DNA of 64,000 bases from Escherichia phage Killian, in sequence record OQ446694.1; one strand, written 5' to 3'. Numbering within the stretch: position 1 is the stretch's first letter; the number at the start of each line of letters is the position of its first letter. A program made the translations under genes and the position numbers. The notes under the pieces were generated by a model. That model was not told the origin of the DNA, did no database searches, and saw nothing but the letters and a program-made list of their open reading frames with translations. Positions 3,000 to 4,482 of this stretch are shown here, in pieces.

Positions 3000-3011
3000 T
3001 TGGAGAAAATT

Positions 3012-3794
3012 ATGGCAGTAGTTGGTGTTCCTGGTTGGATTGGTAGTTCATCCGTAAATGAAACAGGACAACGATGGATGAGTCAAGCGGCTGGTCAATT
3101 AAGATTGGGTATTCCTTGTTGGATGAGTCAATTTGCAGGTCGCTCAAGAGAAATTATTCACACGCTTGGAGCAGACCATAACTTCAATGGTCAATGGTTC
3201 CGAGATAGATGTTTTGAGGCAGGTAGTGCACCTATAGTGTTTAATATCACTGGAGATTTAGTATCATATTCTAAAGATGTTCCTTTATTCTTTATGTACG
3301 GAGATACACCGAATGAATATGTTCAGTTGAACATACATGGTGTAACGATGTATGGTCGTGGCGGGAATGGCGGTAGCAATAGTCCTGGCTCAGCTGGGGG
3401 TCATTGTATTCAAAATGATATTGGTGGGAGACTAAGAATTAATAATGGCGGAGCTATTGCTGGCGGCGGTGGCGGCGGTGGCGGCGGGTATTATTCTCCT
3501 TTTTCACAAATGAGATTGACCTTTGGCGGTGGCGGCGGTCGTCCGTTTGGCGCACCGGGCGGATCTATTGATATGCAATCAGGAGCAACTGCTGGTACTA
3601 TTTCTGCGCCAGGCGCAGGGTCTGTGAACGGTATCTACAACGGCGGGTCTGGTGGTGAAGTTGGCTCCGCAGGAGGTAGATGTAATATTCGTGGTCAAGG
3701 ATATGAATACGATGGCGGAGCTGCTGGTTATGCCGTCATAGGGTCTACACCGACATGGCAAAACGTTGGAACAATTTACGGACCAAGAGTATAA
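3012..3794 (+). CDS. 38: Tail fiber adhesin gp38, T2-type with glycine-rich motifs
   Basis: [13 protein letters not shown]... N-terminus and repeated polyglycine motifs ([30 protein letters not shown]) are typical of T2-like gp38 adhesins; ATG at 3012 has SD GGAG, whereas the ORF-track start at 2991 is TTG inside the hairpin. Confidence 0.85.
3462..3488. repeat. GGC/GGT trinucleotide repeat encoding the polyglycine tract of gp38
   Basis: ggcggcggt ggcggcggt ggcggcggg read directly; a second shorter GGY run at 3524-3541. Confidence 0.8.
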
Positions 3795-3825: not shown

Positions 3826-4482
3826 ATGGCAGCACCTAGAATATCATTTTCGCCCTCTGATATTCTGTTGGGTGTTCTAGATCGCTTGTTCAAAGATAAT
3901 GCTACCGGGAAAGTTCTTGCTTCCCGGGTAGCTGTCGTAATTCTTTTGTTTATAATGGCGATTGTTTGGTATAGGGGAGATAGTTTCTTTGAGTACTATA
4001 AGCAATCAAAGTATGAAACATACAGTGAAATTATTGAAAAGGAAAGAAATGCACGCTTTGAATCTGTCGCCCTGGAACAACTCCAGATAGTTCATATATC
4101 ATCTGAGGCAGACTTTAGTGCGGTGTATTCTTTCCGCCCTAAAAACTTAAACTATTTTGTTGATATTATAGCATATGAAGGAAAATTACCTTCAACAATA
4201 AGCGAAAAATCACTTGGAGGATATCCTGTTGATAAAACTATGGATGAATATACAGTTCATTTAAATGGACGTCATTATTATTCCGACTCAAAATTTGCTT
4301 TTTTACCAACTAAAAAGCCTACTCCCGAAATAAATTACATGTACAGTTGTCCATATTTCAATTTGGATAATATCTATGCTGGAACAATAACCATGTACTG
4401 GTATAGAAATGATCATATAAGTAATGACCGCCTTGAATCAATATGTTCTCAGGCGGCCAGAATATTAGGAAGGGCTAAATAA
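3826..4482 (+). CDS. t: Holin T (218 aa)
   Basis: MAAPRISFSPSDIL...ARILGRAK is near-identical to T4 holin as recalled; single N-terminal TM segment; SD AAGGAGGG before ATG. Confidence 0.95.
   Translation: MAAPRISFSPSDILLGVLDRLFKDNATGKVLASRVAVVILLFIMAIVWYRGDSFFEYYKQSKYETYSEIIEKERNARFESVALEQLQIVHISSEADFSAVYSFRPKNLNYFVDIIAYEGKLPSTISEKSLGGYPVDKTMDEYTVHLNGRHYYSDSKFAFLPTKKPTPEINYMYSCPYFNLDNIYAGTITMYWYRNDHISNDRLESICSQAARILGRAK

Follow-up and report, generated by a model that had tools for sequence, protein, structure and literature searches.

The adhesin encoded by gene 38 of Escherichia phage Killian (OQ446694.1) contains a run of nine glycines whose codons form a tandem repeat, raising the question of whether the run changes in length and, if so, what such changes mean for receptor recognition. 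The gene lies in the 64,000-nt stretch of DNA analysed here (the window). The window comes from a T4-like phage genome (Tequatrovirus) whose G+C content is 35%, and over 25 kb it shares 97% identity with Escherichia phage UGKSEcP1. Coordinates are those of the window, and all features described are on the plus strand.

Gene 38 encodes a T6-type adhesin

The gene order in the window is gp37, gene 38 and holin t. The distal long-tail-fibre subunit gp37 (30-2978, 982 aa) matched the Pfam families Peptidase_S74 (aa 870-928) and gp37_trimer and carries a C-terminal intramolecular chaperone; its autocleavage motif DVYIR^SD (2622-2642) is followed by exactly 113 residues, the removable chaperone. The same motif and the same 113-residue tail are found in gp37 of S16 and the fPS phages, and by analogy cleavage would expose the docking face for gp38. 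Genes 37 and 38 are separated by 33 nt; a GGGGC-TTT-GCCCC stem-loop in this spacer (2985-2997) folded no better than shuffled sequences (z = -0.33), and a terminator scan called no terminator there. A ribosome-binding site, GGAG, was read from the sequence at 3002-3005, 6 nt before the gp38 ATG. Gene 38 runs from this ATG at 3012 to a stop codon ending at 3794 and encodes 260 aa, and holin t (3826-4482; Pfam Phage_holin_T, 8e-118) is the downstream neighbour, as in T-even genomes.

Gp38 matched the Pfam profiles GP38 (PF05268; 1e-71, 241.7 bits) and Gp38_N (PF21721; 4e-20, 72 bits), both above the curated cut-off of 25 bits, as well as the PDB entries 9V85 (PP01 gp38; 1e-79) and 6F45_D (S16 gp38; 1e-49). 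An AlphaFold2 model built from 109 homologues reached a pLDDT of 88 and a pTM of 0.81. When this model was used as a Foldseek query, 9V85 (E = 2e-28, TM 0.88, rmsd 2.5 Å) and 6F45_D (E = 6e-22, TM 0.76) were retrieved, with no other fold at E < 1; the predicted fold is the beta-helix plus polyglycine-II (PGII) sandwich of T2/T6-type adhesins. [quoted passage not shown] Its tryptophans include W9, W22 and W37; in the homologue alignment W9 never varies and W22 shows at least 90% conservation. The profiles, structures and fold bear out the initial annotation, which had called gp38 a T2-type adhesin and not a T4-type chaperone. A T4-type gp38, an assembly chaperone absent from the virion, was rejected: only adhesin-type profiles and structures were matched, and the gp37 encoded here bears an S74 chaperone, as is typical where an adhesin caps the fibre. 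Of the residues of gp38, 24% are glycine, and in alignments variable stretches separated groups of invariant glycine columns at 115-120, 129-130, 152-156/158, 172-176 and 212-221. The five glycine-rich motifs reported earlier agree with these columns and with GRM1-5/HVS1-4, the layout published for this adhesin type.

At the DNA level, gene 38 is 98.9% identical to that of the deposited phages UGKSEcP1/2, and the same gp38, without a single substitution, is encoded on OBRH01000009.1, a metagenome contig of 168 kb. The protein shares 92% amino acid identity with T6 gp38 and 98% with P0001, which represents a cluster defined at 90% identity that includes the gp38s of KarlGJung (Bas37) and WilhelmHis, and Paracelsus gene 38 is 92% identical to this gene in nucleotides. 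KarlGJung/Bas37, WilhelmHis and Paracelsus are Tsx-dependent phages. Given the identity to P0001 of the Bas37 cluster and to T6 gp38, the receptor is most probably Tsx, as judged by sequence similarity. T6 gp38, a Tsx-binding adhesin (Trojet et al. 2011, PMC3157838), has the same length class, GRM1-5/HVS1-4 layout, nine-glycine GRM3, YYSPF.QMRLTF loop and 37-38-t gene order, and differs in a few substitutions and one extra residue near aa 110. Gene 38 is therefore an already known T6-type adhesin of ordinary function and in itself nothing new, since such adhesins are well studied; what tract length adds is modest but real.

Some records of related genes carry unexpected host labels. P0001, the nearest cluster representative, is labelled 'Bacillus cereus' at NCBI, and two cluster members, P0200 and P0202, are recorded as lying on E. 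coli contigs several megabases long (4.85 Mb and 2.04 Mb, respectively). Because the gene is of the virulent T-even type, these are likely contamination or chimeric assemblies.

The nine-glycine tract is predicted to be a core helix

The nine-glycine tract is GRM3 (aa 151-159, 3462-3488). It is followed by HVS2 (aa 160-171, 3489-3524), which corresponds to receptor loop B as defined in PP01 and is modelled as a beta-hairpin (159-172), and then by GRM4 (GGGGG, aa 172-176, 3525-3539). In the S16 gp38 structure, ten PGII helices form a three-layer lattice, in which helix 3, 151-GGGGGGGG-158, is central and has a saturated hydrogen-bond network (Dunne et al. 2018). A phmmer alignment placed gp38 aa 151-158 on S16 151-158, and the AlphaFold2 model was most confident at the tract, with a mean pLDDT of 97 for the 10-residue block aa 151-160. 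In PP01, loop B (Q161-V170) lies directly after GRM3 and is needed for adsorption (PMC12892980); the evolved and host-range mutants of this phage in the studies covered carry point changes in loops at 159, 161 and 163, not tract-length changes. Screens of T6 progeny never yielded a phage lacking GRM3. Taken together, the S16 alignment, the model confidence, the position of PP01 loop B and the unrecovered T6 deletion argue that the tract would be, by homology, a central PGII helix leading into loop B and not a flexible spacer. The earlier proposal that the tract sets loop spacing is thus not upheld: a central, fully hydrogen-bonded helix is expected here, and its deletion from T6 gave no viable phage.

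The two solved structures resemble the gp38 encoded here in some respects and differ from it in others. S16 gp38 (PDB 6F45; Dunne et al. 2018) shares the three-domain architecture and the PGII sandwich (model TM 0.73-0.76), but it is 44% identical and has eight glycines, different loops and OmpC as its receptor. PP01 gp38 (PDB 9V85; PMC12892980) is 67% identical over the receptor-binding domain, whereas its tract consists of eight glycines followed by Tyr and its loops are specific for O157 OmpC.

The tract is encoded by a periodic repeat that shares a 14-mer with GRM4

The codons of G151-G159, the longest glycine run of gp38, are two GGC GGC GGT units followed by GGC GGC GGG, and Tandem Repeats Finder reported a period of 9 with 3.0 copies and a 100% match at 3461-3487; the nine-glycine repeat had been described correctly at 3462-3488. 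The 14-mer GGCGGTGGCGGCGG occurs at 3465-3478, in an overlapping second copy at 3474-3487, and in a third copy that begins at 3525, 51 nt from the second, and is GRM4. No further copy was found in the 64-kb window, and none of 100 shuffles contained it. Poly-Gly runs written with two codons always look repetitive; by our arithmetic, only 1 of 252 orders of this codon composition gives the 9-nt periodicity. The same periodic pattern was found in 7 of 18 relatives with a tract of the same length, including lineages with 25% four-fold divergence, and is therefore inherited and not accidental.

Codon usage in the tract differs from that in the rest of the gene. In the 18 relatives, GGC accounted for 65% of the tract codons versus 20% of the other glycine codons of these genes, in a genome of 35% G+C, and GGA and GGG stood almost only at the first or last position of the tract. 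Some very close relatives had changed three to six of the nine tract codons with the length unchanged. Among the nine closest genomes, synonymous diversity was 0.34 in the tract versus 0.10 at 48 other glycine codons, and 0 of 20,000 random subsets of the latter reached the tract diversity; in the full 18-genome set the excess of synonymous change was not significant (p = 0.12). Such synonymous turnover fits repeated gain and loss or conversion at constant length, and a mosaic origin would fit equally.

Third codon positions repeated every three codons in 149 of 268 comparisons versus 119 expected from within-tract shuffles, a statistic that covers GRM3 of 103 loci with 55 distinct DNAs (e.g., L031, L075 and L083-L088), ignores shared ancestry and hence serves as a lead only. 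Third-position patterns across clades included CCT CCT CC., TTC TTC TTC and CTT CTT .., and adjacent identical codons were fewer than expected in the 55 distinct tracts (146 versus 169, shared ancestry again being ignored).

Tract length is conserved but changes in frame in some relatives

About 95% of some 250 distinct relatives kept the tract length. Among 120 cluster representatives, all but about nine retained the residue number between the RLRI.N.G.I anchor and loop B, and the glycine count varied from 6 to 9 through end substitutions (G9, G8+I/Y, SG6AV), not indels. In the eight closest clusters, 92 further members had a readable tract: 87 had nine glycines, four were shorter, and one (HP3) was frameshifted within the tract. 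Identical tract length in all relatives was looked for and not found, as at least 10 independent in-frame GRM3 length changes were present in the approximately 250 distinct sequences.

The predicted in-frame expansion and contraction is thus seen among relatives. Contractions were each observed in a single metagenome or Logan contig and removed five glycines in P0112, three in P0058, P0119 and P0211, two in P0146 and P0148 and, as one GGTGGC unit, in L074, and one in P0202. Clean gains of 9 nt, from three to four copies, occurred three times. Phages PYps14T and AV121 have three GGC GGC GGT units followed by GGC GGC GGA, versus two such units in PYps15T and KarlGJung; PYps32T gained 9 nt on a different codon background, together with a Gly-to-Val change; and the metagenome contig L075, from an unrelated clade, has four GGT GGT GGC units versus three in six relatives with identical flanks. 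A synthetic 12-Gly query of the phage collection returned three cultured phages (PYps14T, AV121 and PYps32T), whereas synthetic queries with 6, 8, 10 and 15 glycines and T6-like flanks returned no cultured phage of those lengths; by the 6- and 8-Gly queries, no cultured phage of the T6-like flank group had a shortened GRM3. The two phages sharing the 12-Gly allele, which have five further differences in gene 38, come from different places and hosts: AV121 is a Danish phage isolated on E. coli, and PYps14T a German one isolated on Y. pseudotuberculosis.

GRM3 comprises nine residues, or 3.5% of the protein, and accounted for 5 of about 20 recent indel events counted by hand in near-neighbour pairs; about five further events in these pairs had one end in GRM3. 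The remaining five of the at least 10 GRM3 length events came from comparisons outside the near-neighbour pair list.

Other length changes were noted in the gene. In PYps55T (L092:6168-6977), GGQ is tandemly duplicated in GRM1 and GRM3 is followed by an additional Ser; D5505 (L091) has one glycine fewer in GRM4, and PYps35T (L093) has lost four residues in HVS3. All three phages form plaques, and these small indels are in frame. The RefSeq gp38 of HP3 (P0128) is cut to 187 aa by its frameshift in the glycine tract, and that of HP3.1 (L104) is intact; the published differences between HP3 and HP3.1 are point changes elsewhere, and the frameshift probably arose as an error of sequencing. The gene span is short (L111:201-972) in HP3.2, which was obtained by directed evolution and whose gene 38 CDS is annotated from a later start, but a tract change was rejected as the cause, the gene having an 11-nt frameshifting deletion at nt 150-160.

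Loop B is duplicated or deleted between GRM3 and GRM4

HVS2 together with GRM4 is tandemly duplicated in two phages, by 51 nt in ZN18 and by 54 nt in PYps47T, matching the distance between the 14-mer copies of GRM3 and GRM4, and the differing junctions and backgrounds show that these were two separate events. The converse deletion of loop B was found in five proteins, all from assemblies. When the junction of the HVS2 duplication was used as a query, ZN18 was the sole single-piece match, the rest being two-piece matches to single loops.

Two further rearrangements were observed in assembled sequences. In L078 (MAVE01000154.1), the gp38 frame breaks directly after HVS2, at the expected start of GRM4 (…GRLIF LV*); the end of the contig may be chimeric, or the DNA may have been rearranged at this motif. 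A short repeat pair is present in gene 38 at 3075-3104 and 3120-3149, and exactly the 15 residues between these repeats are absent from the Logan protein P0146, which also has two glycines fewer in GRM3; short-repeat deletions therefore occur elsewhere in gene 38, too.

Near-isogenic Yersinia phages differ in GRM3 and HVS2

Four of the phages concerned, PYps14T, PYps15T, PYps32T and PYps47T, were isolated from bird faeces in one zoo in 2017. They form two pairs, PYps32T/PYps47T (L113/L114) and PYps14T/PYps15T (L115/L116), which were compared over 50 kb (record positions 40000-89999) of their approximately 166-kb genomes. On either side of their gp38 differences, PYps14T and PYps15T agreed at every position, over 24,413 nt on the upstream and 25,235 nt on the downstream side, and within gp38 they differed only by the 9-nt unit TGGCGGCGG and one codon, N210. 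Their total lengths differ by 10 nt versus 12 nt in gp38, and so at least one further difference must exist elsewhere. PYps32T and PYps47T likewise showed no mismatch in 23,540 nt and 26,063 nt and differed in the compared region only in GRM3-HVS2, by 45 nt and one base; these 45 nt equal their whole-genome length difference. NCBI places PYps32T and PYps47T in different species (cm8 and sf21, respectively).

The published host ranges of these phages differ. PYps32T, with 12 tract residues of which one is Val, has a host range of 87 of 128 Y. pseudotuberculosis and 8 of 9 Y. pestis strains, versus 52 of 128 and 4 of 9 for PYps47T with its duplicated HVS2. That of PYps14T (12 Gly) covers 78 of 128 and 9 of 9, versus 85 of 128 and 8 of 9 for PYps15T (9 Gly, N210 lost), a contrast in which the three extra glycines are confounded with the loss of N210; the clearest contrast, that of PYps32T and PYps47T, involves the loop duplication. 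Of these differences, Hammerl et al. (2022) mention just one, the insertion of 15 residues in PYps47T. In a set of the 60 closest gp38 genes, 4 of 7 Yersinia-isolated phages carried a GRM3/HVS2 length variant, versus 1 of 46 others (Fisher p = 6e-4), a test that overstates independence, since a single zoo study contributed three of these four Yersinia phages. An effect of GRM3/HVS2 length on host range is thus plausible on correlative grounds. Unit-sized GRM3 indels or loop B duplications in near-isogenic phages were not found described in the literature searched.

Secondary citations describe classical host-range mutants as carrying deletions, substitutions or insertions in HVSs only. Duplications of the T4 gp37 His-box are reported to extend the host range to Y. 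pseudotuberculosis, as shown by selection (Tetart et al. 1996, as cited by later authors). Like the HVS2 duplications of ZN18 and PYps47T, they are in-frame tandem duplications of a small receptor-binding segment at the fibre tip and concern Yersinia hosts; unlike them, they lie in gp37 and involve a different repeat, whereas in gp38 the host-range effect is a correlation only.

Explanations for the length variation

The explanation that we consider likely is that gp38 is a T6-like adhesin whose poly-Gly DNA is an indel hotspot, that fold selection keeps the number of glycines at nine, and that the variants tolerated may shift host range. Gp38 would be the monomeric adhesin capping the gp37 trimer of a T6-like Tequatrovirus, most likely binding Tsx, and GRM3 would form the central helix of a three-layer 'PGII sandwich' that runs to the distal tip and hands over to loop B. 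Coding a long glycine run almost only by GGC and GGT would generate the three 9-nt units and the 14-mer shared with GRM4, and because of these the GRM3 segment would be the indel hotspot of the gene. We infer that slipped-strand mispairing adds or removes whole units, and pairing between GRM3 and GRM4 would duplicate or delete loop B. Selection to maintain the fold would then leave nearly all lineages with nine residues. A PGII turn comprises three residues; an extra unit, giving 12 glycines, would thus add one turn at the end that feeds loop B. The 12-Gly allele and the loop B duplications, which are viable and segregate among near-isogenic natural phages, would probably alter how loop B is presented, and altered presentation would change host range quantitatively. 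One allele fits this course less simply, as PYps32T could stem from a PYps47T-like duplication through a 45-nt deletion and not from simple slippage. Two further results weigh against this explanation: the 6- and 8-Gly queries returned no cultured T6-like phage with a shortened GRM3, and the PP01 host-range mutants in the studies covered have point changes in the loops.

On this explanation, a central polyglycine helix regarded as a rigid, strictly conserved scaffold would tolerate a whole extra turn in viable phages, and the repeat-rich DNA around GRM3 would yield unit-sized indels and loop B duplications in natural phages that are otherwise identical but differ in host range. If the relation is causal, tract length and loop copy number would offer a simple engineering handle on adhesin reach, and some host-range differences between phages identical at genome scale would be explained.

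The best-surviving alternative, which we rate as possible though doubtful, is that GRM DNA serves mainly as short homology for swaps of HVS cassettes when T-even phages co-infect a cell (Tetart et al. 1998), the length changes being rare by-products of mis-registered exchange. The literature calls GRMs recombination hotspots, and several of our results are of the kind this alternative predicts: GRM3 and GRM4 share the 14-mer, the duplications and deletions have their end points in these two motifs, different N-terminal types are combined with the same HVS2 among relatives, and the tract codons of close relatives differ far beyond background, as from a mosaic origin. However, the clean changes of +9 nt and -6 nt, with identical flanks and in genomes that otherwise match, fit intramolecular slippage better and require no second phage; for homologous recombination, moreover, a shared stretch of 14 nt is very short. 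Exchange of cassettes and an indel hotspot are compatible, not exclusive.

A second alternative, that GRM3 is an evolved contingency tract whose 9-nt repeat and 14-mer are kept because their instability supplies loop B length variants for host shifts, appears improbable. Bacterial simple-sequence contingency loci have a tandem repeat in a surface-recognition gene and change by whole units. GRM3 resembles them in its whole-unit length polymorphism among close relatives but differs in having three units of 9 nt, an in-frame, graded effect in place of on/off switching, and a strongly conserved length. The persistence of the periodic pattern in the lineages with 25% four-fold divergence, the excess of third-position matches in the 55 distinct tracts, the concentration of length variants in Yersinia-isolated phages, and the near-isogenic pairs that differ only at gp38 in the 50 kb compared would all suit a maintained switch. 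Yet the periodicity statistic ignores shared ancestry, GGY-only coding is expected of any long glycine run, and many relatives encode the same protein with scrambled, non-periodic codons; moreover, three units are far below classical contingency repeats, length is unchanged in about 95% of relatives, and the variants are terminal and rare. As there are only three units and length is so conserved, a dedicated, selected hypermutable switch is unlikely, and we think that the mutability of the tract is a by-product of coding poly-Gly. The related idea that the GRM3 repeat and the GRM4 14-mer constitute a built-in source of loop B variants for adaptation to non-E. coli hosts (Yersinia), and thereby cause the host-range differences of the near-isogenic phages, is a tentative one.

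It is very improbable that the length variants as a whole are mistakes made in sequencing or assembling a low-complexity, GGC-rich stretch: most contractions were seen only once, in Logan or ENA contigs assembled automatically, and the RefSeq frameshift of HP3, with HP3.1 intact, looks like an error, but every change in an intact ORF is in frame, tracts of 27-36 nt without repeated 31-mers pose, by our reasoning, no de Bruijn ambiguity, the expansions recur on three codon backgrounds, and the 12-Gly allele is carried by two independently isolated and sequenced phages that differ at five other sites of the gene, which makes an artefact unlikely for the expansions.

Distant gp38-type genes

A distant gp38 clade with about 52-58% identity (L083-L088, L063, L064, L067 and L077) was found on 53-133 kb Enterobacteriaceae assembly contigs and on 220-230 kb viral or metagenome contigs. 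The genes of this clade adjoin one for a 1129-aa fibre protein with Gp34_trimer and S74 domains, which suggests that gp38-type adhesins also occur on larger or different phage backbones.
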